A DNA stretch of 64,000 bases, taken from assembly GCA_964406665.1 (NCBI GenBank), contig CAYOSQ010000001.1, positions 71,412 through 135,411 of the forward strand. Reading direction: 5' to 3'. Positions within the stretch are counted from its first letter, which is position 1. Each line of letters starts with the position of its first letter. A model generated the notes under the pieces. The model made no database searches. It saw nothing but the letters and a program-made list of their open reading frames with translations, and was not told the origin of the DNA. This document shows positions 22,259 through 57,590 of this stretch, in pieces. Source of the DNA: an uncultured Planctomycetia bacterium. GTDB taxonomy: Bacteria; Omnitrophota; Gorgyraeia; VGKH01; JBHPFN01. Made by a program: the position numbers and the translations under genes.

Positions 22259-25200
22259 ATGCGTAGCTGTAAAAACAGTCAGAGTATTTGTTTAAAAACA
22301 ATCATCGCAAGATGTATTCTTGCGATTCTTACATTGTCCTTTTTTTCTGCAAGCCTTCTTTTTCTCTCCAGCAGCCCAGCTTACTCTGAAGACCTTTCTG
22401 ATTTCCTCTGTGAATTAGCCACCAAATATTATGAGCGCGGAGATTATCCTAACGCGTTACACGAATTCAAAAAAGCTTTAATGATCAATCCCCATAATCG
22501 CACTGCGCAAAAATACATTGCAATTATCAGCGATCTAGAAGAAGTTGTTGTTGAGCCATCACCTTATCTGCCCATCGAAAGCATTCCTCAGGAATACAGA
22601 GACAAAGCTATTAAAAATGCACTGGATAGTTTTGATGAGGTTATTTTTGTAAAAGAGCCATATATCCAAGAAGAAACAGAATCTCAACCACCATTAATTA
22701 TTATTGATTCAGATGACGAACAAACTTTTCCTCAAGAAGAGCTGGATAAGTTTGATGAGGTCAGGGTCTCTAGAGAGCAGACTATTTTGGAAGATGTTCC
22801 TAAAGAACCCTCGATAGTAATATCTCCTGTGCAGGATAGGGAGATTATTGTTCGAAGTGCGCTCGATGAATTCGAAGCACGGTATGGGGCGGAAGATATT
22901 GTAGATATTGTGCCAGAGCCAGAAGAGATTGTTGAGGAAGAGCCCGAACACGAAGAAGCTATTTATTATCCTATCGAACCAGAGGAAGAATTTCCAGAGG
23001 AATTTGTTTCTACATCTTATGTTGAACCTTCCACAGACATAGAAAAGCCAAAGGGTTTTAAGCGTCTTTATCTTAATGTAGAAGTTAGGGCTTCGCAGCC
23101 ACAAACACAAATAAGTTTACAAATAGACAGAGATTTAATAATTATTGGAAGTAATATTGCTAGGTTTCTTGTGATTAATCCTGAAATTTTAGAGATTGTT
23201 AGATTGCGTCCCGACGAGATAAAGCTTGTGGCTAAGAAAATTGGAAGTACTTACGTGCATATCTGGGATGATGAAGGCCGGTGGACTTTTATCGTTCAAG
23301 TGTCACCGTTTCGCTCTGGCAGGCCGACACTTGCCGAGCTATATCGTCAGCAAGCCGAAGAGGCTGGTTCGTTAAAATTCCATTATTATAATGAATGGCG
23401 TTCGTTTTATTCTGGAAGAAGAGCGGATAACCTAACAAGGGATTCTCTTACTCTATATCAAAGCTTGGGTCTTGATATGCAGACTCCTTATGGAGATGTT
23501 GATGGCCGCGTTCAATTAAACAGGCTAAATGAAGAAAGCGAGCTCTCATTTTATACTTTAGGATTAACCGATGGCATGGTAGGTCCGTTTAAGAATTTTG
23601 ATCTACGTGCTTTAGATTATTATATAGATTTTGATAATATTTCTTTTGGTGGTGCGAGCTTGCGCGGTGTGAGGTTAGATGCAGAAGCATTTAATGAAAA
23701 AGTGGATTATACGGTTTTCTGGGGCAAAGAGAAAAGTGGGGCATTTGGTCCACTTGCTCCGGGGCTTGAGGGTTCAAACAAGTCATATCTTAAAGGTATA
23801 AATTTTGGATTCAACTCTCCGGAAAACCTTTATCAGACGCTTTCCTATTTCGCCGGATATGGTTCTGATAGGAGTTCTTTGTTGTTCCAAGATGCCTATG
23901 ATTATACGGGCGAGCTTAACTTAGGCGATACAAAATTATTTACCAACGTCGGACACGATGGCTATTCTCTGGCTTATATGCTAAGAGGTGTATATACCGT
24001 TCCTAAGCTTCAGTTAGCCGGCGAGTTTAGAAATATTGACGATGATTTTTATAGCATAACCGGCAGACCTTATGCATCAGGAGAAGTTGGTGGTTTGGTG
24101 AGCTATCGCTATGCCCCTTCCAGAGATCTAGATATCTCAGGACGCCTGAATGTTTATAGGGACACCTTGTTTCCTAACCCTCAACACAAAGAAAGATATA
24201 ATGCGGATTTCGATACTGCCATACGCTATACCATTAATCCTAGTACATCTATGAGGTTAGATTATTATAATGTTCATGATACCGGCACTATATCGCCGCA
24301 TAAAGATGAGTCTGTAGGATTATCCTTGTACAAAACAATTGATTTCATTAGGCCGCTTAGTACGTTTGTAAACTTAAGACATCAATCTAGTAAAAATCCT
24401 AGTTCGACAACTCTGGACTATAAAAATGAAAAAGCTGGCTTTGGCGTAAGAGTTGGCTTAACCGATACGCTTAATTATTATATCTCCAAGGAATTCAATT
24501 GGCTGGAGGATTATGCCGGAGATGTAGAAAAACCGCATGTTTTTGAGACGGGGCTTGATTATAATACCCAAATTCTCGACAGCCCGTTTTATATAACCTC
24601 TAGGCTTTATTTCCGGGATGAAGAAAATGCTGCTTCAACAAGAAGTTTCTTGGCTGGTGAAGATAATTTAGAAGGACAGGCTGAATTAAGGTATACCCCC
24701 AACGAAGATTTTAATTGCTACGCAAATCTACGAGTTAATAACTACTGGGCGGAAAACGCCGATACTACCAAGCGCACAGAAGCAGAGATTCGTTTCGGTA
24801 CACAATGGACTTTTGATACCGGCTTGAAATGGAATCCCATAGGTAGCATAACAGGCATTGTTTTTAAAGACTTGAATTCAGATGGCAAGCGTCAAGCGGA
24901 CGAGATTGTTATGAAGGATATTAAAATTTTCTTAGGAAGAGAAAAATTTGATATAACCGATGAAGAAGGAGCGTATATCTTTAAAAATATCCGTGCTCGC
25001 AAAGCCTTTGTTTACTTAGATACTAATACGCTACCAGCTGGATATGTGCCGACGGAAGAGAAATCCCAAGAGATAACAATTCAAAACGGCAAACTTATAA
25101 ATGTTGATTTTGGTGTTATAGCGCGTTCCGAAATATATGGTATTGTGTTTAAAGACTTAAATAGCAACGGAGAATTTGATGCTCAAGACGAAGGCGTGAG

Positions 25201-25420
25201 AGATGCTGTTCTATCTTTAGAAGATGGTTTAACAACCTCTACGAATGCAAGAGGTCAGTTTTATTTAAGAGAAGTTGCTCCTGGAAAACACACTCTTACC
25301 CTAGACATAAATAGCCTACCTATTAATCTTATTCCTTTGGTGCCGTTATTTAAAGAGATAGAGGTGTTTGAGGGAATTACCTATGTGCACAATATTCCTT
25401 TGAAAGAAACACAAGACTAA
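22259..25420 (+). CDS. large outer-membrane/cell-surface protein: N-terminal TPR, acidic linker, pilus-assembly (CpaC/secretin-N-like) domain, beta-rich Y/G/D/N region, and two C-terminal Cna-B/SdrD-B-like domains; putative usher-like component
   Basis: Motifs LQIDRDLIIIGSNIARFLVINPEILEIVRLRPDEIKLVAKKIGSTYVHIWDDEG; duplicated GIVFKDLNS(D/N)G...D modules at the C-terminus. Confidence 0.45.
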   Translation: MRSCKNSQSICLKTIIARCILAILTLSFFSASLLFLSSSPAYSEDLSDFLCELATKYYERGDYPNALHEFKKALMINPHNRTAQKYIAIISDLEEVVVEPSPYLPIESIPQEYRDKAIKNALDSFDEVIFVKEPYIQEETESQPPLIIIDSDDEQTFPQEELDKFDEVRVSREQTILEDVPKEPSIVISPVQDREIIVRSALDEFEARYGAEDIVDIVPEPEEIVEEEPEHEEAIYYPIEPEEEFPEEFVSTSYVEPSTDIEKPKGFKRLYLNVEVRASQPQTQISLQIDRDLIIIGSNIARFLVINPEILEIVRLRPDEIKLVAKKIGSTYVHIWDDEGRWTFIVQVSPFRSGRPTLAELYRQQAEEAGSLKFHYYNEWRSFYSGRRADNLTRDSLTLYQSLGLDMQTPYGDVDGRVQLNRLNEESELSFYTLGLTDGMVGPFKNFDLRALDYYIDFDNISFGGASLRGVRLDAEAFNEKVDYTVFWGKEKSGAFGPLAPGLEGSNKSYLKGINFGFNSPENLYQTLSYFAGYGSDRSSLLFQDAYDYTGELNLGDTKLFTNVGHDGYSLAYMLRGVYTVPKLQLAGEFRNIDDDFYSITGRPYASGEVGGLVSYRYAPSRDLDISGRLNVYRDTLFPNPQHKERYNADFDTAIRYTINPSTSMRLDYYNVHDTGTISPHKDESVGLSLYKTIDFIRPLSTFVNLRHQSSKNPSSTTLDYKNEKAGFGVRVGLTDTLNYYISKEFNWLEDYAGDVEKPHVFETGLDYNTQILDSPFYITSRLYFRDEENAASTRSFLAGEDNLEGQAELRYTPNEDFNCYANLRVNNYWAENADTTKRTEAEIRFGTQWTFDTGLKWNPIGSITGIVFKDLNSDGKRQADEIVMKDIKIFLGREKFDITDEEGAYIFKNIRARKAFVYLDTNTLPAGYVPTEEKSQEITIQNGKLINVDFGVIARSEIYGIVFKDLNSNGEFDAQDEGVRDAVLSLEDGLTTSTNARGQFYLREVAPGKHTLTLDINSLPINLIPLVPLFKEIEVFEGITYVHNIPLKETQD

Positions 25421-25726: not shown

Positions 25727-25754
25727 CGGTACCACCTCCATAAATTTTCAAAAA

Positions 25755-25782
25755 AAGCCCCTTCGAAAGAAGGGGCTTTGCA
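25755..25782 (-). terminator. intrinsic terminator (expression platform of riboswitch 2)
   Basis: Minus strand aaagcccctt-ctttcgaa-ggggcttt followed by TTTTTTGAAAATTT, immediately upstream of the CDS start. Confidence 0.55.
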
Positions 25783-25812: not shown

Positions 25813-25905
25813 CTACGGCAACCCGACAACCATAAAGACAGCCGATGTCTTTTTAGGCTCAAGGCTTTGTGCCCTACTCTTTCGAAGTAGTTTACTTTTA
25901 AGGAT
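25813..25905 (-). ncRNA. candidate c-di-GMP-I (GEMM) riboswitch aptamer, copy 2 (proximal to the CDS)
   Basis: Minus-strand RNA GUAAACUACUUCGAAAGAGUAGGGCACAAAGCCUUGAGCCUAAAAAGACAUCGGCUGUCUUUAUGGUUGUCGGGUUGCC matches the recalled GEMM-I consensus (GCAAACC, GAAA-capped P1, GGACGCAAAGCC, GGGUUACC-like 3' end). Confidence 0.55.
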
Positions 25906-25929
25906 TTGAAAGAACGTTGCTTCCAACAA

Positions 25930-25960
25930 AAAACCCTAGAATTTTTCTAGGGTTGCTACT
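25930..25960 (-). terminator. intrinsic terminator (expression platform of riboswitch 1)
   Basis: Minus strand ccctagaaaaattctaggg followed by TTTTTTGTTGG. Confidence 0.55.
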
Positions 25961-25961
25961 T

Positions 25962-26042
25962 TTGGCAACCCTGCCGCCTTCCCCCTTTCGGGAATAAGGC
26001 CGTTGGTTTTGCGTCCTTAGATTTCTCTAAGTTTGCCTTTTT
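25962..26042 (-). ncRNA. candidate c-di-GMP-I (GEMM) riboswitch aptamer, copy 1 (distal)
   Basis: Minus-strand RNA GCAAACUUAGAGAAAUCUAAGGACGCAAAACCAACGGCCUUAUUCCCGAAAGGGGGAAGGCGGCAGGGUUGCC; P1 CUUAGA-GAAA-UCUAAG with the GACGCAAAACC core. Confidence 0.5.
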
Positions 26043-26237
26043 CAAAAGCTAATATACTCTATAGAAACTATAGCACACAAAAAGCGCTTTTTCAAGTTGG
26101 CCAGGTAAATTTCTGAAAATTTTTAAACATCCTATTATGACATTTAAGCGTAACCGCTGAATTAGCTTTACTTTAGGTTTCTGCTATGATAGAATAGCAT
26201 TCACATTCAACAATATTTTTTAATCAAAAAACAAAAA

Positions 26238-29016: not shown

Positions 29017-30342
29017 ATGAGGTCAAGAGGATTTTCTTTACAAGAAGTTCTGATTACTATTGTTTTAGTTCTTGTTTTAGGTGGGGCAGCGTTTAAAGCA
29101 CTTGTTGTTGGCCAAAACACATTTTTTTCTAGCTCTGCTCTGCTAGACTTGCAGCAACATGCTCGTGAAGGCATAGATAGAATGACAGATGAATTACGAC
29201 ACAGCGCATCGGGAAAAGTTACAATTTATCAATGTCCTTCAGAAGTATGTGAGGGTGGCGCTATAGCATTTCAGGTTCCTGTAGTTACGGATGATCCTAT
29301 AGCTGGAAGCACATTTAAACCAACCGGCTTTGGTGCCGCACAGAAAAAGTGGGGGTTTGATGGAAGGGAAAGTTCTTCACCAATTATTTATTTGGCTCCT
29401 GCTGCCGGCGGTGCTTTGTCTCAATATAGTGGTAAATTAATTAGATTAACATCCAAAGATCAATATTGTGGAAATGGTATCTGTGAGACCGGAGAAACAA
29501 TAGCTTGTTGTCCTGATTGTAGTTTTGTTTCTGGTGATGGAGTATGTTGTTCTAATTTAGGAGAACGCTCTTGGAATTCTAGCGATTGCGGGGCTTGTTT
29601 TCTTAAAGAGACGCCCATACAGATGGCAGATGGAACTTCAAAAAATATTGAAGATATAAAAATTGGTGATATGGTATTATCTTTTGATGAGCAGGAAAAG
29701 AAGTTAGTGGCTGACGAAGTAAAAAACGTTGCTAAACAAAAAGCAGATAATTATATTATAATAAATGGCCATTTAAGGGTTACACCCAATCATCCGTTTT
29801 ATAGTAATGGTCGATGGATGCCCATAGGAGATCTACAAGTAGGAGATGTTATTTTTACTTCACAAGCCAAAGAAGAGCTTATTACGGAAATTGTAAAAGT
29901 TGAAGATACTGTTGAAGTATATGATATAGAAGTTAATCCATATCATAATTATTTTGCCGGAGGCTATCTAGTGCACAATAAGGAGGTATTGCCAGAAATA
30001 CCACCAGTTATGGAAGGTGGCGGTTCGTTTGAAATACCTGGCGGGCGCAGTTGGCTAGGGCCTCGTTTGTTTCTAGGCATAGCCTTTGCTCAGGAAGTTT
30101 CTCCTTTAGCACCAAATATAGATATGTATGATACATTGCCTGCGCTTGACAGTATATCTAATTATGATATTAAGATTCTTGCAGAAGACGTTAGAGGGGT
30201 TTATTTTCTTGGTACGCCCCTTCCGCCGGATAAGCCAAACACCGTAACAGTATTTGTGGATATGTATAAAGAGATTTTTGGCGGCGGTGACGTGCAGACA
30301 CATTTATCAACAGAGATGAAGTTAAGAAATCTTAGTTTGTAA
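29017..30342 (+). CDS. type IV pilin-like protein (class III signal peptide RG|FSLQE) with a Cys-rich module and an embedded Hint/BIL domain (about nt 29596..29979)
   Basis: N-terminal MRSRGFSLQEVLITIVLVLVL; Hint blocks CFLKETPIQMADGTSKNIEDIKIGDMVLS, TPNHPFY and VYDIEVNPYHNYFAGGYLVHN. Confidence 0.6.
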   Translation: MRSRGFSLQEVLITIVLVLVLGGAAFKALVVGQNTFFSSSALLDLQQHAREGIDRMTDELRHSASGKVTIYQCPSEVCEGGAIAFQVPVVTDDPIAGSTFKPTGFGAAQKKWGFDGRESSSPIIYLAPAAGGALSQYSGKLIRLTSKDQYCGNGICETGETIACCPDCSFVSGDGVCCSNLGERSWNSSDCGACFLKETPIQMADGTSKNIEDIKIGDMVLSFDEQEKKLVADEVKNVAKQKADNYIIINGHLRVTPNHPFYSNGRWMPIGDLQVGDVIFTSQAKEELITEIVKVEDTVEVYDIEVNPYHNYFAGGYLVHNKEVLPEIPPVMEGGGSFEIPGGRSWLGPRLFLGIAFAQEVSPLAPNIDMYDTLPALDSISNYDIKILAEDVRGVYFLGTPLPPDKPNTVTVFVDMYKEIFGGGDVQTHLSTEMKLRNLSL

Positions 30343-30368: not shown

Positions 30369-33140
30369 ATGATGAGAAGCTTTAGGCTTAACAACAAGGG
30401 AGCAGCTCTTCTGCTAATTTCTCTTTTATCGCTTATAATGTTAGCGGTTATCGCAGGAGTTCTGTTTTCTCGCACTGTAGGAGAAAATCTGTTGGTTAAA
30501 AATGAACAGATCAGCTTTGAAGCACAGTATGCTGCAGAACAAGGAGCGGAGGCGGTATATTTAGAGCTATTAAATGCTCCGTTTCGTTCTCGGTGGTATA
30601 CACACGAAGTTCCCAATTTTCACTTTGGAGACAATACTTTGGATCAGGCGAATCCTCCTGTCGTTTCTACGGCCGATCTCGTAGTTCCCAACACCATGAT
30701 TAATACTTTAGGAGAATATGCTTCTACTGATGGTAGCAATGTCAGCTTTATTGCTAAAATATATAATGATCCTTCTACTTTATATTCCGGAAGAGAAAAA
30801 ATTATCCTGATAAAAGGTTTTAGCAGTGATGGAAGGCGCTCAAGATTATTGGCTGTTAAGGCTTCGATGCATTCTTTATTTGAATATTTTATGTTTGCCC
30901 CAACAACAGGAATAAATTTTGAAGGCGGTACTTTTGATGCCGGCGGAGGTAAAATTCATTCCGAAGGCGGGATGCAATTTTATTCAGGTGCAGAGATTAA
31001 TAATGTAAGTCAGCTAAGCACTTCCGGCGGATCATTTTTCTACTATACGTATCCACGCAGACCACCATTATGGATTGATCCTGTTGCTGGAGTTCCGCCA
31101 CCAGGAATGTTTACAGATGCCGACGGAAGAACTTTGGCTATGCGCGAAGATACAGGATCGCCGGATGGAACCACTTGGGCAGAGATATTTGCTCTTGGGC
31201 CTGATTTTGCTCCTGAAGACTATTGGCAACAGGGGTGGTGTGGCAATGCAGAAGCATTTGAGGAGTGCTCTTTTGATGTTCAGGCAGCCACTATGTATCC
31301 TGATACAGGCGCCGAAGGTCTCTTAGAGGATAAGTTTATACACCAAAGCACTACCGGTCGCTTAATGGGAGATAGGTATGGAGCTATTTGTTATAACCCG
31401 AATGTAGGTTATGAAACCAGTTGGGATTGTGCAGAGCTCTGGGGTACATATGAGGCAGGAGCGATTTGGGATATGGTTGATCCAGATTTTGATACTGATT
31501 CTGCAAGAGTATATATGTATGATGATTATGGATCATCTACGGAATTAAACAGTAGCGCAGCTACAATACAGCCCGTAGGCGCAGATCCTGTTAAGCTTCC
31601 TAACAGGCTTTTGGATTCTCCATATAGACGACCTAAATATTATACTGATCAGAATCAAGAGGGATATCGCCGCGAAGAACATGATGGGGAGCATTATGTT
31701 TATCCTGCTAATACAGGAGCGGGGGCATATGATCCGGAGGACATGGAAGGTACTTGTTCGGGTGAGGTATGTCCAGATGTTACATATCTTAACAGTCTTA
31801 AACAGCCGGAATCTTGGTCTACATTTTTGCAAGATACCGGATTATACGGAACTGTAATGGATGCTAACACAGGCGCACCAGAAGAAGGCATTGCTCCTCC
31901 GAGAATAGACGCTGATGCATTAAGGGATCTTGCCATGCAAGATGGCATTAGGATTATTAATACTGTGGATTCTGAGGAGTGGAATGATAATCCAGAACTA
32001 TATTATGAGAATCCTGACTTTACTTTGCAAGACAACGGAAGCTACCAGGTTATAATCAAGGGGCAGATTTACATGCCAAATCCAGAAGGCAAGATTATAG
32101 TTAATATACCTGGGTTAGGTTCAGTCACTCTGTTTGAAAAAATAGGGTTTTATCGCGCAATTGATACACACTACGAACAATCTGTCAAAATCGACGTAGG
32201 TAATCTTAAGGCTGCTATGGCGGAAGATCCTGATAATTTTGCCACAGATTTAAACTTTGCTTATTCCGATTACCCAGTAGCCTTGGTAAATGGAGAAAGT
32301 CTCCCAGAGGGTGGTTGGAGTGTTGTTTCCGACGGAGCAGTTTATATAACAGGTAATTACAATACCGTTGATTATCAACCAGCTATGGTTTTAACGCCGG
32401 TTAATAAAACATATCTGCTTGGTCCGGATTACGATTTTCCTGACTATGTTCCGTATACTTTGGAGCATGTAGACGAAAACTACAATATGCCTGATGGGGA
32501 ACAGGATTGGTGGAATAATAATTATAATGATCAGAAACCATCAGAAGTTAATGAGGATATGACATATCGTGTATCGATAATAGGTTATAATGCTGCAAAA
32601 ACTACTTGGTTGCGTTGGGAAAACAGTAATGAGATTTGGAGTGATTGGAATGGAGGGCCAGATCGTCCATGGATTACGAAAGAGATCGCAGGAACTTTGT
32701 ATCGTCTGCCGTATGATCCAAGTGCTTCTCCGGGTGACGAGGATTATTATAATCGTGTATACGACTATGGAGGTGTTGGTAGAATTGCAAGAAGAAAATG
32801 TACGGGTTGCAATGGCGTAGGTCATACCATGGGTATTGTTCCTGATGGAGCCGGATATGCTGTTTGTCGAGGTTGTTCGGAATGGTGTTTTACTCCAGGA
32901 GAAGGAGTGAGTGCGACTAACATAGGCTCTTTATGTGATAATTACGATGGCCCTCAAGCCTCTACTGGTACTAACAGCACTACTTATTCTTGGGAGCCAG
33001 ATTATATGAATGGTAATTTGCCGCCCCCTGATTTAGCAGGTATGAATTTTGCTGCCTGGATGTTGCTTGCGGACACACAAGAGAATTTTAATAATCACCT
33101 AAGTGCATTGCAAAGTGAGGAAACTGAAATTATAGAATAA
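30369..33140 (+). CDS. large (923 aa) PilX-like minor-pilin/tip-associated protein with C-terminal CxxC pairs
   Basis: N-terminal NNKGAALLLISLLSLIMLAVIAGVLFSRTVGENLLVKNE resembles PilX_N; C-terminal CTGCNGVGH...CRGCSEWC. Confidence 0.45.
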   Translation: MMRSFRLNNKGAALLLISLLSLIMLAVIAGVLFSRTVGENLLVKNEQISFEAQYAAEQGAEAVYLELLNAPFRSRWYTHEVPNFHFGDNTLDQANPPVVSTADLVVPNTMINTLGEYASTDGSNVSFIAKIYNDPSTLYSGREKIILIKGFSSDGRRSRLLAVKASMHSLFEYFMFAPTTGINFEGGTFDAGGGKIHSEGGMQFYSGAEINNVSQLSTSGGSFFYYTYPRRPPLWIDPVAGVPPPGMFTDADGRTLAMREDTGSPDGTTWAEIFALGPDFAPEDYWQQGWCGNAEAFEECSFDVQAATMYPDTGAEGLLEDKFIHQSTTGRLMGDRYGAICYNPNVGYETSWDCAELWGTYEAGAIWDMVDPDFDTDSARVYMYDDYGSSTELNSSAATIQPVGADPVKLPNRLLDSPYRRPKYYTDQNQEGYRREEHDGEHYVYPANTGAGAYDPEDMEGTCSGEVCPDVTYLNSLKQPESWSTFLQDTGLYGTVMDANTGAPEEGIAPPRIDADALRDLAMQDGIRIINTVDSEEWNDNPELYYENPDFTLQDNGSYQVIIKGQIYMPNPEGKIIVNIPGLGSVTLFEKIGFYRAIDTHYEQSVKIDVGNLKAAMAEDPDNFATDLNFAYSDYPVALVNGESLPEGGWSVVSDGAVYITGNYNTVDYQPAMVLTPVNKTYLLGPDYDFPDYVPYTLEHVDENYNMPDGEQDWWNNNYNDQKPSEVNEDMTYRVSIIGYNAAKTTWLRWENSNEIWSDWNGGPDRPWITKEIAGTLYRLPYDPSASPGDEDYYNRVYDYGGVGRIARRKCTGCNGVGHTMGIVPDGAGYAVCRGCSEWCFTPGEGVSATNIGSLCDNYDGPQASTGTNSTTYSWEPDYMNGNLPPPDLAGMNFAAWMLLADTQENFNNHLSALQSEETEIIE

Positions 33141-50149: not shown

Positions 50150-50238
50150 TTTGTTGACAAAAAAAGCCTCTGTTATTATTATAGTATGAATATTAAAGGG
50201 CGATTAGCTCAGTTGGTTAGAGCATCTGACTTACATTC
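50150..50238 (+). pseudogene. duplicated tRNA-Val(TAC) promoter plus 5' half (acceptor, D arm and anticodon stem-loop up to ...ttacattc), truncated; direct repeat of 54890..54978
   Basis: 50198..50238 is identical to the first 41 nt of the intact tRNA-Val at 54938; the upstream TTGACA-17-TATTAT promoter is about 80% identical to the one upstream of the intact gene. Confidence 0.55.
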
Positions 50239-50312
50239 CAATCTGAGTTTTTTTCATAAGCTGTTGTAATTGCTGTAAATACGGTCTTCGTAAATCACTT
50301 ACGGAGATTTTT

Positions 50313-50377
50313 TGTTTTAATAGAGTTTAATAGTTTTTAATGGTTTTTAATGCTGTATGGACACCTATATGGACACC
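50313..50377 (+). repeat. four tandem ~10-bp units (g/t)ttttaat(a/g)g, followed by two direct repeats tatggacacc (50356..50365 and 50368..50377), in the leader of the giant gene
   Basis: Visible in the sequence: gttttaatag agtttaatag tttttaatgg tttttaatgc, then tgTATGGACACCtaTATGGACACC. Confidence 0.45.
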
Positions 50378-50514
50378 AAGTAGGCAGGGGGTGGGCTTAA
50401 GGGGATATCCACATAGTTAGACCGAAGGTCGTCAAGAAACCGCTTTCTTGAAACACTACATTTACTCTTTTCTTTGTAGAATTAGATGTTATTCTTTTAG
50501 TAATAGACAGATAA

Positions 50515-50650
50515 AGGTAAACCATCAGAGATGGTGGGACGCAAAGCCACGGGTCTAGGAAGGGTCAGCCTAGATTAATATAAAGTCTTTTTGAAGAATA
50601 TCTTAGGCAATTATCCTTTATTTAGATAGCCGGGTTACCAAAAGGTGGTT
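50515..50650 (+). ncRNA. candidate c-di-GMP-I (GEMM) riboswitch aptamer, copy 3
   Basis: GGUAAACCAUCAGAGAUGGUGGGACGCAAAGCCACGGGUCUAGG...AGCCGGGUUACC; an 11-bp GU-containing stem gccggguuacc-aaaa-ggugguucggc followed by a U-rich tract, then the AAGGAGAG SD and ATG at 50683. Confidence 0.45.
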
Positions 50651-50682
50651 CGGCTTTCTATTTAAACATAAGGAGAGTTAAA

Positions 50683-53600
50683 ATGAAAAAGAAAAAAATC
50701 CTAGGAATAATTATTTGTTTAATAGTGATAGCAAGCCTCTGTTTTTTAGGTAATGCTGTGGCATTTCAAGGTCAAGATGCTAATACAAAATTAAATCAAC
50801 AGGCTAATAAGCTTTTGACGCCAGATGTGAAAAAGATCAATGAACTTGCGTCTGATGTCCGGGCAAATATCGAAAGACTCACTCAGAAAAGAAGTGACAT
50901 AGAAATTTCGAGTTGGAATTTGTCTACGGAGACACCACATAGAATAATTTCTAAAAACATTAGATTAGGCAAAAATATTCAAATCAACAAAGATAATATA
51001 GAGTCACTTACGAAAAATTTCATTTTGAGTCAACGAGATTTGCTGAAAGCGGATATAACTAATCTGAAGTTAATAAGGGCGCATAACATCAACAATAAAT
51101 GGTATGTAACATATCAGCAATATCTAAATAATATCCCAGTATATTATGGACTTGTTGAAATTAGAATGAGTGGAAAAGGAGAAATTTCGCTTTTTGGTTC
51201 AGATTACCATTCTGAAATAGAAATTTCCACCAAACCTTCGATTCTTGATGAAAAAGTTATACGCATAGCTCAAAAGGATATTGAGTTCAATGAAAGCACA
51301 GATTCAATATTTTCTTATCCAGGACTTATAGTTCTACCTGTTCAAGATGGCGGATCTATAAAATATCAGCTTGCCTACAGACTCGTACTTTCTACCAAAA
51401 ACCCTATTGGAAGCTGGGTTTTCTTTATTGATGCGCACAATGGAACGATACTTGCCAAGTATAACAATATCAAATTTTACCAAATTGATGGCAGTGTTAA
51501 TGGAGAAATATTACCGCAATATTATGATGATGAATTGGTGCAGAAAAATTTTATTCATGAAAGGGTTGAAGTTCAAGATATTGGATATGATTATACTGAT
51601 TTGGATGGATATTTCAGCATTACTGGAGATGCAGATGAAGGAGAGCAATTTACTTTAATTTCAGAATTAAAAGGCCCATATGTAGATGTGGATTATGAAG
51701 ATGGTGATGATGCAATTTATCTCGAAGAAATTGAAGCTCAGGGAACGTATGATTGGACATGGGATGCTTCTTTAGGGAGGCAGGACGAACTCAATGTTTA
51801 TTATCACGTCAATCGAATCCATGATTATGTAAAGAATAATCTTGGGTTTTCTGGCATGGATTATCAAATGAAGGCAATGGTTTCTGTTTTTGAATATTGG
51901 GATAATGCATTTTACAACCCAGATGATGAAAGCATTAACTTTGGAGCAGGTGGTGTAGCTTATAGAAATTTTGCTCTTTTTTCTGACGTTATTTATCATG
52001 AGTATGCCCATGGCGTTACTGATCATATTTATCCGGAAGGTTCGCTGCCTTATTTTGGACAATCAGGAGCAATGAACGAGGGTTTTTCAGATTACTTTGC
52101 GTGTACAATTAGTAATGAGCCTTATTTAGGAGAGGGGGGGCTCAGTAAATTTGGCTTGCCATACATGCGTACAGTTGATAATTCGGCTCGATACCCAGAT
52201 GATTATATCAACCGAGTACATCATGACAGCATGATTTTTTCTGGTTCTTTGTGGGATTTGAGAGAAATGTTAATAGATAAATACGGTGAGAATTATGGCA
52301 TAAAAAAAACCGATACTTTATCACATCTTGCTCGCTTTGGATATCCTGAAAATTTTGAGGATTATCTCCTTGAACTTTTATTTGTTGATGATGATAATGG
52401 CAATATTTATGACGGCACACCTAACTCTGTCGAAATATATACGGCTTTTTCTAGACATGGAATAGGTCCTGAGCCCACTGCGGTAGGTATTCAATATTTT
52501 GGTTCATTTATTGATGATGCAAATGGCAATAATAACGGATTGCTTGATCCGGGTGAAACTGTAGAGCTTGAAGTCACCCTTTTAAATAATCTTATAGAAA
52601 GTCTAGGCGGTTATGCAATTCATAATGTTACAGCTAGGCTAGTTAGCGTCGATCCATATATTACCGTTTCGAATAAGAAAATTTTGGTTGGAGATCTTAA
52701 ACCTCAGGAAACGGGTGTTGCAAGATTTAAGATTACGCTGGAAGATGCACCTGTTGATTGGAACGATTATCAAATTGACTTTTCTTTAGAAATAACCGGT
52801 TCCCCTGTTACTACAAATAATTTTTCTATAGATGCTACGGATTTTTGGCAAAGCAATTTTCGGATTCCAGTTGCATTTTTGGATTTGACTCATAGAAAAT
52901 CCTGGTATTATGATGAAGAGCTAGGAAATAATGATCGTTTTGCAAATCCGGGGGAAACAGGAGAGATATTAATTGCTGTTAAAAACACCGGTCTTCTTGT
53001 TGCCACGGGAGTAGTTGTAAAAGTTGCTTCAAACAGTCCATATGTATTTGTTCTAGAGGATGAGGCTTATATTGAGGATATCGATCCAGGAGATAGTGGA
53101 TATGCTTCTGTGATGGTTCAATTTTCTGATACAGTTCCCGTAGGCATAGAAGTTGACTTTAAAGCTGAAATTAGCGCTGACGAAGGTTTTTTAATGTATT
53201 TTCCAATAGAGATATTTGTTCCCAGGATAATATTTGATGATCATGCTTCATCAAGCGGAGTTGTTGGGGATTCTACTTATTATCTTCAGCAAGCTGTGTT
53301 TGGTGATTATGATAATGATAATGATCTGGATATCTATATGGCTATGCATGAAGATTGGACAGTTCCAGCCCTGGATTTGCTCTATCGAAACAACGCAGAT
53401 GGCACGTATACAGAGTTAGGAGAAGAAGCAGGAGTGAATTCATTGTTGTCTTCAACGCGCGCTACGTTTTTTGACTATAATAATGATAACTGGCTAGATT
53501 TATTTATTTTGCACGATGAGGATAATACTCTGTTTCGCAATAATGCAGATGGAACTTTTACTGATGTAACTATGGAAGCAGACATAGATACTAACGGACA

Positions 53601-54775: not shown

Positions 54776-54937
54776 TCACCTCCACATTTTTTGAAATCTG
54801 ACTATGCCGCTTATTTCCACCGCTATTGTTTTACCAACAAGCGCTTCCGCAGAATAACTTAACTCGTTATCATTGTCTCCGAATAATTTTCTATTGACAG
54901 TTAAGGATTATATCATTATCATAGTATAAATATTAAA

Positions 54938-55011
54938 GGGCGATTAGCTCAGTTGGTTAGAGCATCTGACTTACATTCAGAGGGTCGAGGGTTCGAGTCC
55001 TTCATCGCCCA
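54938..55011 (+). tRNA. tRNA-Val (anticodon TAC)
   Basis: gggcgattagctcagttggttagagcatctgactTACattcagagggtcgagggttcgagtccttcatcgccca. Confidence 0.85.
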
Positions 55012-56288: not shown

Positions 56289-57590
56289 ATGGAGATTAAA
56301 TTATATTTAATAGTTCTGTTTTTCGGAACACTGTTAGGTTTAAATCTTGCCCGTTTATTAATTGTGAAAATTTCAAGGACAGAAGTAGTTGAAGATGAGA
56401 AAAAGGCTCGAAGCAGAGAATCTATGATACGAAAGGTTCTAAGTAGAGTTCCGGAAGTAGGTGCAGATAAACAAAAAGTTAAAACTGATTCATCTGTTTT
56501 GGAGAAGAAAATTCTCTATGAAGATGAGCTTAACCGGATTCTTCAGATTGAGCAGGAGATTTCCGCTAATGCTCAATTAGCAGATGTTTCTCGTGTCATA
56601 GTCGAGAATGCCATGAAGACATTTGGTGTTGATAGATGTGTTTTACTGTTGCTTGATCCGGAAACCAAAATACTTAAAATACAATATTCTATTGGTTTAA
56701 TCGATGAAGATATTAATAGTACGAGTCTTAAGTTAGGAGAAGGATTATCTGGTTATGTTGCCGAGAGAAATCAGATGATGGCTATAGAAGATGTTAAAAA
56801 AGAATTCTGGTCTAAGGGAGAAAAAGAGTATTATTACACCGGCCCCCTAGTCAGCATTCCCCTAACGACACAAAACATGGTTTTCGGAGTATTGAATATC
56901 GATCGTAAGAAAACAGGAGAGGTTTTTAACGACGACGATATCCGTTTTATCAAGAGTTTAGCTGTGCAGAGTGCGATTGCCATACAAAATGCCAGATTGT
57001 ACGAAGAGGTTCAAGAGGGCTATCTCAGGACAATAATGGCTTTGGCAGAAGCCTTGGATGCAAAAGACCCGTATACTCATAAACACTCAGAGAACGTTAC
57101 CAGGTTTGCCGTGGCAATTGCAGAGGAGCAGGGATTATCTTTATCAGAGATTGAAAAAATTAGAAGAAGTGGTCTTATGCACGATATTGGAAAAATCGGT
57201 ATTAAAGACGATATCCTTACAAAGCCTGGTAAATTGACCGATGAAGAATTTGAGCAGATAAAAACTCATCCTGAGAAAGGTGAAAGCATCCTGCGGTCTT
57301 TGCCTTTTCTGGAGGAAATCTCAAAAATAGTACGCCATCATCACGAACGTTATAATGGTGCAGGATATCCGGATAAGTTAAAAGGTTATCAAATAGAATC
57401 AGGTGCTAAGATATTGGCGGTTGCGGATGCGTTTGATGCCATGGTATCTGATAGACCATATCGAAAAGCATTGAGTTTAGAAATAGCACGCGGAGAATTA
57501 GAGCGCAACAGCGGAACACAGTTTGATCCGGCGGCAGTTGAGGCATTTCTTAAGGTCCTTCAGAAAAATCCAAACATTATTAAAAGTTAG
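56289..57590 (+). CDS. membrane-anchored GAF + HD-GYP domain c-di-GMP phosphodiesterase
   Basis: N-terminal TM; GAF-like middle; HDIGKIGI and HHERYNGAGYP motifs. Confidence 0.75.
   Translation: MEIKLYLIVLFFGTLLGLNLARLLIVKISRTEVVEDEKKARSRESMIRKVLSRVPEVGADKQKVKTDSSVLEKKILYEDELNRILQIEQEISANAQLADVSRVIVENAMKTFGVDRCVLLLLDPETKILKIQYSIGLIDEDINSTSLKLGEGLSGYVAERNQMMAIEDVKKEFWSKGEKEYYYTGPLVSIPLTTQNMVFGVLNIDRKKTGEVFNDDDIRFIKSLAVQSAIAIQNARLYEEVQEGYLRTIMALAEALDAKDPYTHKHSENVTRFAVAIAEEQGLSLSEIEKIRRSGLMHDIGKIGIKDDILTKPGKLTDEEFEQIKTHPEKGESILRSLPFLEEISKIVRHHHERYNGAGYPDKLKGYQIESGAKILAVADAFDAMVSDRPYRKALSLEIARGELERNSGTQFDPAAVEAFLKVLQKNPNIIKS

Follow-up and report, generated by a model that had tools for sequence, protein, structure and literature searches.

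The question raised by this locus is whether the 5' leader of a giant gene for a secreted protease carries a riboswitch that responds to cyclic di-GMP (c-di-GMP) and, if it does, in which direction that riboswitch would act. An earlier note, made from the letters of the sequence, had proposed a c-di-GMP-I riboswitch in this leader, the third of its kind in the window (the whole stretch of 64,000 nucleotides that was analysed), together with a c-di-GMP regulon of secreted and surface proteins. The sequence that it quoted for positions 50505..50682 of the plus strand is present at that place. Our analysis confirms that the leader holds a class I c-di-GMP riboswitch, which is canonical and belongs to the tetraloop type of GEMM-I; it functions, most likely, as a transcriptional ON switch for a gene encoding a metalloprotease with FG-GAP and ASPIC domains. 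The features on which this reading is based are compiled in Table 1.

Table 1. Positions of the leader aptamer, its predicted platform, the gene that follows, the boundaries of the surrounding module, and the tandem pair of aptamers in the window.
Feature	Position	Strand	Details
c-di-GMP-I (GEMM-I) aptamer of the leader	50506..50642	+	RF01051, 62.8 bits; model R1, 92.3 bits
G equivalent to Vc2 G20	50516	+	aligned to RF01051 model position 11
P2 (P1a)	50517..50542	+	outer G-C and U-G pairs, AAA bulge, 6-bp CCAUCA/UGGUGG, GAGA (GNRA) tetraloop
A equivalent to Vc2 A47	50543	+	aligned to RF01051 model position 38
P3 (P1b)	50545..50636	+	10-bp conserved base and ~60-nt rod-like extension (~50556..50624) with internal loops
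ACC with presumed C92 equivalent C50638	50637..50639	+	aligned to RF01051 model positions 82-84
Terminator-like hairpin	50628..50655	+	12 bp, AAAA loop, -14.3 kcal/mol; 5' arm AGCCGGGUUACC
U-rich tail UUCUAUUU	50656..50663	+	directly 3' of hairpin; 5 U in 8
Shine-Dalgarno sequence AAGGAGAG	50671..50678	+	ends 5 nt before ATG at 50683
Regulated gene, 1349 aa	50683..54732	+	signal peptide, M4/M36-type zinc metalloprotease, FG-GAP_3 x5, C-terminal UnbV_ASPIC
Left module boundary	50154..50238	+	sigma-70-like promoter and first 41 nt of tRNA-Val(TAC), truncated in anticodon stem
Right module boundary	54894..55011	+	second promoter copy (~80% similar) and intact tRNA-Val(TAC)
GAF and HD-GYP protein	56289..57590	+	HD_5/HD; intact HD and GYP motifs; N-terminal membrane segment
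Promoter-like TTGAAA-17-TATAGT	26095..26067	-	upstream of tandem pair
c-di-GMP-I aptamer, tandem pair	25961..26047	-	RF01051, 78.2 bits
Terminator of tandem pair	25954..25932	-	with UUUUUGUU
c-di-GMP-I aptamer copy B, second of tandem	25814..25906	-	RF01051, 62.9 bits
Terminator of tandem pair	~25779..25752	-	with UUUUUUU
Tandem-controlled ORF, 89 aa	25741..25472	-	signal peptide, no Pfam match

Identity and structure of the aptamer

Rfam covariance models applied to the whole window at their gathering thresholds returned three matches to RF01051 (c-di-GMP-I). One of these lies in the leader, on the plus strand, and scores 62.8 bits against a gathering threshold of 35, with an E-value of 6.4e-10 when all 4227 families and the entire window are taken into account, which bears out the proposal of a c-di-GMP-I element in this leader. 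Its alignment covers model positions 1-87, the full length of the model, with 0 non-canonical pairs, and its conserved junction sequences are GGUAAAC, GGACGCAAAGCC, and GGGUUACC. The remaining two matches are the minus-strand copies with which the leader had been compared, and both are real (Table 1). Alignment of the three copies on the family structure, a check that had been suggested in the earlier note along with the covariance-model search, revealed compensatory changes in 8 of 18 pairs, with 96.3% of cells paired; when partners were slid as a control, only 30-43% of cells were paired, and 0 of 500 shuffles reached the real value. The three copies were also used to build a covariance model of our own (R1). 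At the locus itself, no locus-specific covariation was found among the four copies in public assemblies; in the three other assemblies (L001, L084, and L085) the locus is 100% identical to that in the window, and the four copies therefore hold no covariation information. By every sequence and structure criterion tested, 50506..50642 is a member of the c-di-GMP-I family, and c-di-GMP is, judging from this membership, its probable ligand.

The two helices of the aptamer follow the family consensus closely. In P2, the conserved flanks of the family (GGYAAAC...GGACGC) were found as GGUAAAC, CCAUCA-GAGA-UGGUGG, and GACGC, with all pairs canonical; among the three window copies, 5 of the 6 stem pairs covary, or 6 of 8 when the outer pairs are counted. 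The base of P3 comprises 10 canonical pairs (50545..50555 with 50625..50636) and the family closing AGCC.CGG.../...CCGGGUU, and beyond this base P3 continues as an imperfect rod-like hairpin up to ~50590. The 60 nt inserted here replace 10 distal P3 positions of the RF01051 alignment, and this distal extension is the sole departure of the aptamer from the consensus. Folded without constraints, 50545..50636 forms a single long hairpin (-24.7 kcal/mol) and 50506..50643 recovers both P2 and the long P3 (-34.5 kcal/mol). The RF01051 model does not include the P1 helix; the P1 pairs of the related RF03167 model were flagged as non-canonical at 50506..50642, where no canonical P1 helix is evident.

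A long P3 is not a rare or novel feature. Screening of metagenome contigs with a narrow pattern (6-bp P2 with a GNRA loop, GGACGCAAAGCC, and, after a gap of 65-95 nt, GGGTTRCC) identified at least 120 long-P3 GEMM-I stretches, and most of the matches listed are full-length aptamers of 119-149 nt according to R1. None of the long-P3 matches listed shows sequence likeness to the P3 insertion of the leader aptamer, and their insertions are mutually unrelated as well. Among these same matches listed, an 11-nt-like receptor of the CTAA type was detected in 35 of 65 aptamers with a GAAA loop versus 1 of 43 with another GNRA loop. The leader aptamer has a GAGA loop and no 11-nt CCUAAG/UAUGG receptor, and a regular helix (UCUAG/UUAGA) occupies the corresponding site in P3, in keeping with the pattern whereby loops other than GAAA occur without the 11-nt motif.

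Expression platform and direction of the switch

The aptamer ends 41 nt upstream of the ATG at 50683 and lies in a 5' leader with a coupled platform. A GU-rich 11-bp hairpin followed by a U-rich tract had been described just before the Shine-Dalgarno (SD) sequence; the hairpin and the tract are both present, although the hairpin is of 12 bp and spans 50628..50655. It comprises 6 G-C, 4 G-U, and 2 A-U pairs, with the tail TTCTATTT, and 50628..50663 as a whole conforms to the pattern of an intrinsic terminator, namely a G+C-containing stem-loop and then a U tract. A total of 3 terminator-like sites were found, 50628..50655 among them, versus 0.4 expected in shuffles. The predicted stability of the hairpin is comparable to that of the terminators of the other two riboswitches (-12.1 and -18.5 kcal/mol).

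Nucleotide for nucleotide, the 5' arm of the hairpin coincides with the 3' strand of P3 together with the C92 region of the aptamer, and 12 nt are shared. Because of this identity, the aptamer and the terminator-like hairpin are mutually exclusive, and an ON switch in which the ligand allows read-through is therefore predicted; given that the aptamer is transcribed and folded first, this is also the simplest reading of the leader. The predicted folding energies describe the same competition. An RNA that ends at 50643 folds as the aptamer, and once the 3' arm is added the minimum-energy structure contains the terminator. For the full leader, the minimum-energy fold holds the hairpin at -47.7 kcal/mol, versus -41.6 kcal/mol when the aptamer is enforced, and this cost of ~6 kcal/mol could plausibly be offset by ligand binding. 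The overlap of aptamer and hairpin in combination with a U tract was identified in 18 of 109 distinct long-P3 GEMM-I elements from metagenomes (matches listed), and clean U runs accompany it in L094, L129, L135, L136, L165, and L166; the overlapping terminator of L135, for example, reads AGCCGGGUUACCGAAAAAAGGUAAUCCGGCUUUUUUAUUUU.

During transcription of the leader, P2 with its GAGA loop and the long P3 hairpin would be the first to form. Binding of c-di-GMP at the junction (G50516, A50543, and C50638) would lock the 3' strand of P3 and the ACC in the aptamer, such that the segment GGUGGUUCGGCU could not invade, no terminator would arise, and RNA polymerase would enter the gene. When ligand is lacking, GGUGGUUCGGCU would displace the base of P3 to yield the 12-bp hairpin and then the U-rich tail, and transcription would stop 20-30 nt ahead of the start codon. 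High c-di-GMP would, in this way, induce the secreted protease. Family membership, the mutual exclusivity of aptamer and hairpin, and the domains of the gene product are shown, whereas ligand binding, termination by the hairpin, the direction in which the switch works, and the site at which transcription begins are inferred; because the U tract is interrupted and the four G-U pairs are consecutive, the efficiency of termination is uncertain.

No sigma-70-like promoter was recognised between an upstream terminator (50283..50309) and the aptamer, that is, in 50310..50505, where 50487..50502 bears a weak resemblance to the -10 region of the tRNA promoter. Further upstream of the leader, at 50315..50377, three to four TTTTAATRG units recur with an exact spacing of 10 nt (phased A/T tracts), followed by two copies of the direct repeat CTRTATGGACAC (arranged as TGGACACC-N4-TGGACACC) that are unique in the window. 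Together, the phased tracts and the repeat may mark a promoter that escaped recognition, in the form of curved DNA plus a site for an activator.

The most serious competing explanation accepts the aptamer as real but places control at the level of translation and/or in the OFF direction, with the hairpin serving as a sequestor of an anti-SD rather than as a terminator. Ligand binding would then free GGCUUUCU (50652..50659) to pair with the SD sequence AGGAGAGUU, and translation would be lowered. Such pairing does appear when the aptamer is enforced, with the SD region 50672..50679 joined to 50652..50659 and the mean predicted probability that the SD is unpaired falling from 0.33 to 0.16; moreover, the hairpin is followed by an imperfect U tract, and the class I riboswitches of Vibrio cholerae do not act via termination (PMC6366702). 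However, the helix between SD and anti-SD would be weak because 4 of its 8 pairs are G-U and it closes a 12-nt loop, and the SD is also paired in the ligand-free fold (with AUCCUU of the P3 extension), so that the predicted difference between the two states is small. The hairpin and its U tail also fit the terminator pattern, as well as a design seen again in relatives, there with clean U tracts. We consequently regard translational or OFF control as unlikely. Since accessibility of the SD is low in both states, a translational layer could nevertheless run opposite to the transcriptional one. A role of the AUCCUUU strand of the P3 extension as a ligand-dependent anti-SD was also considered and was dropped, given that the SD is mostly paired in both states. 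The transcriptional ON switch is thus retained as the preferred reading of the leader.

The regulated gene and its relatives

The product of the gene downstream of the riboswitch yielded domain matches to Peptidase_M4/M36, FG-GAP_3 (five), and UnbV_ASPIC, in agreement with its earlier description as a giant secreted protease with FG-GAP and ASPIC domains, and a signal-peptide-like segment was recognised by inspection at its N-terminus. Alignment with 11 homologs shows that the zinc site HEYAH...E is invariant (H439, E440, H443, and E466). The closest homolog among 5.8 billion proteins, P0002, is 39% identical over 45% of the length. In one of the other assemblies (L085, 7968..10983), gene calling split the protease gene into two overlapping ORFs, one of 70 aa and one of at least 953 aa, which for that sample is suggestive of a frameshift or an error in assembly close to the 5' end.

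No Rfam match was detected upstream of P0002, and R1 identified no GEMM-I element at 80 genome loci of relatives of the protease or at two P0002 loci. R1 detects diverse GEMM-I elements at 45-74 bits, and the negative result at these loci is therefore meaningful. Across the protease family, association with the riboswitch is not conserved.

A probable insertion at tRNA-Val

The window also encodes dnaA, gyrB, gyrA, and yidC, and all named best matches of its GyrB and AtpD are affiliated with Candidatus Omnitrophota (70-84% identity), which assigns the organism to this phylum. Two related Omnitrophota contigs, with AtpD that is 83-84% identical, encode neither the protease nor a GEMM-I element; their gene order is atpD, tRNA-Val, a small GIY-YIG ORF, tRNA-Asp, tRNA_bind, GAF-HD-GYP, and YjbQ. 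In relatives at this level of AtpD identity (contigs L207, L209, and L206), tRNA-Val follows directly after atpD and a 4.7-kb module is absent. In the window, this module lies between a truncated and an intact tRNA-Val (Table 1), and it therefore has the appearance of an insertion. The two boundary copies agree exactly in their tRNA part and are ~80% similar in their promoter part. The riboswitch and its gene thus look like a lineage-specific 4.7-kb insertion at tRNA-Val, which is broken in the anticodon stem, and integration at that position appears to have duplicated the 5' half of the tRNA rather than the usual 3' half. No integrase was found inside the module and no compositional anomaly was detected in it, with a GC content of 0.34-0.38 compared to 0.35-0.43 in its neighbours.

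Two further observations concern this region in the lineage. In L206, a truncated 5' part of tRNA-Val is located just upstream of tRNA-Val and restriction-modification genes are inserted downstream, suggesting that the tRNA-Val site may be a hot spot. The epsilon subunit of ATP synthase in this lineage comprises 79-81 aa, with only the N-terminal domain (L085 418..657, L206 1912..2154, and L209 1868..2113); its gene is positioned at the head of the operon, before atpI, and not after atpD, and the operon contains two c-subunit genes.

An insertion might also carry a decayed, non-functional relic, still recognisable by its sequence, that has ceased to be transcribed with the gene or to regulate it. 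The absence of the module from relatives, the failure to recognise a promoter upstream of the aptamer, and the lack of comparative support at the locus could all be read in this way. Decay is nevertheless improbable, more so than translational control, given that the pairs of the conserved core are all canonical, the ligand-contact residues are all intact, the expression platform is precisely registered on the 3' strand of the aptamer, the gene is intact with its catalytic residues, and four independent assemblies, made from different samples, agree fully at the locus.

Ligand contacts and the tandem pair

In Vc2, the class I riboswitch of V. cholerae, A47 intercalates between the bases of the ligand. 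The G20 of Vc2 contacts G-alpha of the ligand and C92 pairs with G-beta (PMC6140456), and a change of G20 to A is the defining signature of the GEMM-Ib riboswitches that recognise cGAMP (PMC6140456). The equivalents in the leader aptamer are G, A, and C, i.e., canonical; the exact register of C92 within ACC, which we take to be C50638, follows the Vc2 numbering. The model of the c-di-GMP-I-GGC variant (RF03167) has a G at the position equivalent to A47, and the diagnostic stretch around that position reads GACGCAAAGCC in the leader aptamer versus GACGCGAAGCC in the RF03167 consensus. That the leader aptamer senses another ligand, either 3'3'-cGAMP (GEMM-Ib) or the ligand of the GGC variant, is highly improbable: RF03167 was kept as the best clan member in a search with a narrow E-value and a neighbouring paralog (copy B) has A at the G20 position, but the RF03167 score of 57.3 bits is below its gathering threshold of 59, whereas RF01051 is far above its own, and the residues are A, not G, at the A47 position and G, not A, at the G20 position (G50516). 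By these criteria the leader aptamer is neither a GEMM-Ib nor a GGC variant.

The second aptamer of the tandem pair differs in this respect. Copy B has A, not G, at the G20 position (AAAA-GU-AAAC), the signature of cGAMP or bispecific riboswitches (PMC6140456), and instead of sensing c-di-GMP twice, the tandem could therefore act as a gate for two ligands. Each tandem aptamer has a terminator of its own (Table 1) and an apparent antiterminator that pairs with the 3' strand of the aptamer (GCAACCC versus GGGUUGC). This arrangement points to a switch of the OFF type, in contrast to the copy at 50506. The protease and the 89-aa protein thus seem to be regulated in opposite directions, as far as can be judged from their expression platforms.

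Three ORFs for large proteins lie on the plus strand near the tandem riboswitch. These encode a protein of 1053 aa that combines SdrD B-like domains with an N-terminal region of pilus type (T2SS-T3SS_pil_N; 22259..25420), a protein of 441 aa with a Hint/pretoxin-HINT domain (29017..30342), and a protein of 923 aa with no Pfam match (30369..33140). Among metagenomes, contig Ga0302251_1001788 (L135) has three GEMM-I matches within 5 kb, and one of these copies combines a long P3 with an overlapping terminator in a design that is nearly identical to that at 50506..50642.

The earlier note had combined the three riboswitches with an HD-GYP phosphodiesterase gene at 56289 to argue for a c-di-GMP regulon that governs secreted and surface proteins. 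The gene is as described, encoding a protein with GAF and HD_5/HD domains and intact HD and GYP motifs, but its use as evidence for a local regulon did not hold up. It occupies the same place downstream of atpD in relatives without the riboswitch and the protease, where it is syntenic with tRNA_bind and YjbQ; its nearness therefore reflects conserved synteny and not membership in the module, and a part for it in the module or a local regulon was rejected. All that the gene indicates is the presence of a c-di-GMP hydrolase in the organism. A regulon of secreted and surface proteins agrees with the two genes under riboswitch control, one for the secreted protease and one for the 89-aa protein, which has a signal peptide, but these two are the only targets on which the idea is based. 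A broader scenario, in which a self-contained module of riboswitch and cargo was inserted at tRNA-Val, c-di-GMP turns the protease ON and the small secreted protein OFF, and such units travel together, is possible in our view but rather doubtful.

Comparison with known riboswitches

The leader aptamer shares with Vc2 (RF01051) the two-hairpin architecture, the junction sequences, the GNRA tetraloop on P2, and the equivalents of G20, A47, and C92. It differs in the 60-nt distal extension of P3 and in the absence of the 11-nt receptor, both of which are common in the family. Vc2 does not act via termination (PMC6366702), whereas the platform predicted for the leader is terminator-like. In its predicted function the leader aptamer resembles Bc2, which is located upstream of cap (encoding a collagen adhesion protein) in Bacillus thuringiensis and is a class I ON switch that promotes read-through (PMC6366702). 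Both comprise a class I aptamer that promotes read-through into a gene for a surface or secreted protein, as predicted here from structure only, in another phylum and for another gene.

In Clostridioides difficile, a class I riboswitch governs the secreted zinc metalloprotease ZmpI/PPEP-1, which is tied to surface adhesion, and class I switches are OFF switches, such that high c-di-GMP represses the protease (PMC6366702). Both that system and the present one place a secreted zinc metalloprotease under a c-di-GMP riboswitch; however, the switch of C. difficile is OFF, whereas the platform of the leader predicts induction. The protease families are also unrelated: PPEP-1 is an M34-like protease, and the Omnitrophota protein is M4/M36-like and fused to FG-GAP/ASPIC. 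Finally, the GEMM-Ib riboswitches of Geobacter that recognise 3'3'-cGAMP have the same fold and belong to the same Rfam clan as 50506..50642 but carry A at the G20 position, where the leader aptamer has G and copy B has A. This makes copy B the more interesting GEMM-Ib candidate.

Implications for Candidatus Omnitrophota

The riboswitch class, the long P3, and the design of the platform are all ordinary, and knowledge of the class is unchanged; mild novelty is limited to the phylum, the gene carried as cargo, and the context of insertion. A literature search found no paper on c-di-GMP riboswitches in Candidatus Omnitrophota, a group in which c-di-GMP signalling has hardly been described. The present analysis contributes to this group a single well-formed c-di-GMP-I riboswitch whose platform is predicted to be of the ON type, and it names a concrete output of c-di-GMP, namely a secreted zinc protease to which FG-GAP/ASPIC repeats are fused. 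What is more unusual lies to the side of this result: the apparent insertion of the module in a tRNA gene, and the second aptamer of the tandem, with its G20A change of the cGAMP or bispecific type.

If the scenario of an inserted module is true, then one lineage of Omnitrophota would have acquired, downstream of its ATP synthase operon and with duplication of a tRNA promoter and the 5' half of the tRNA, a protease/beta-propeller protein that may serve in attachment to, or attack on, other cells, in bacteria that are ultra-small and possibly host-dependent. Units of riboswitch plus gene would, in that case, represent cargo that arrives ready-regulated.
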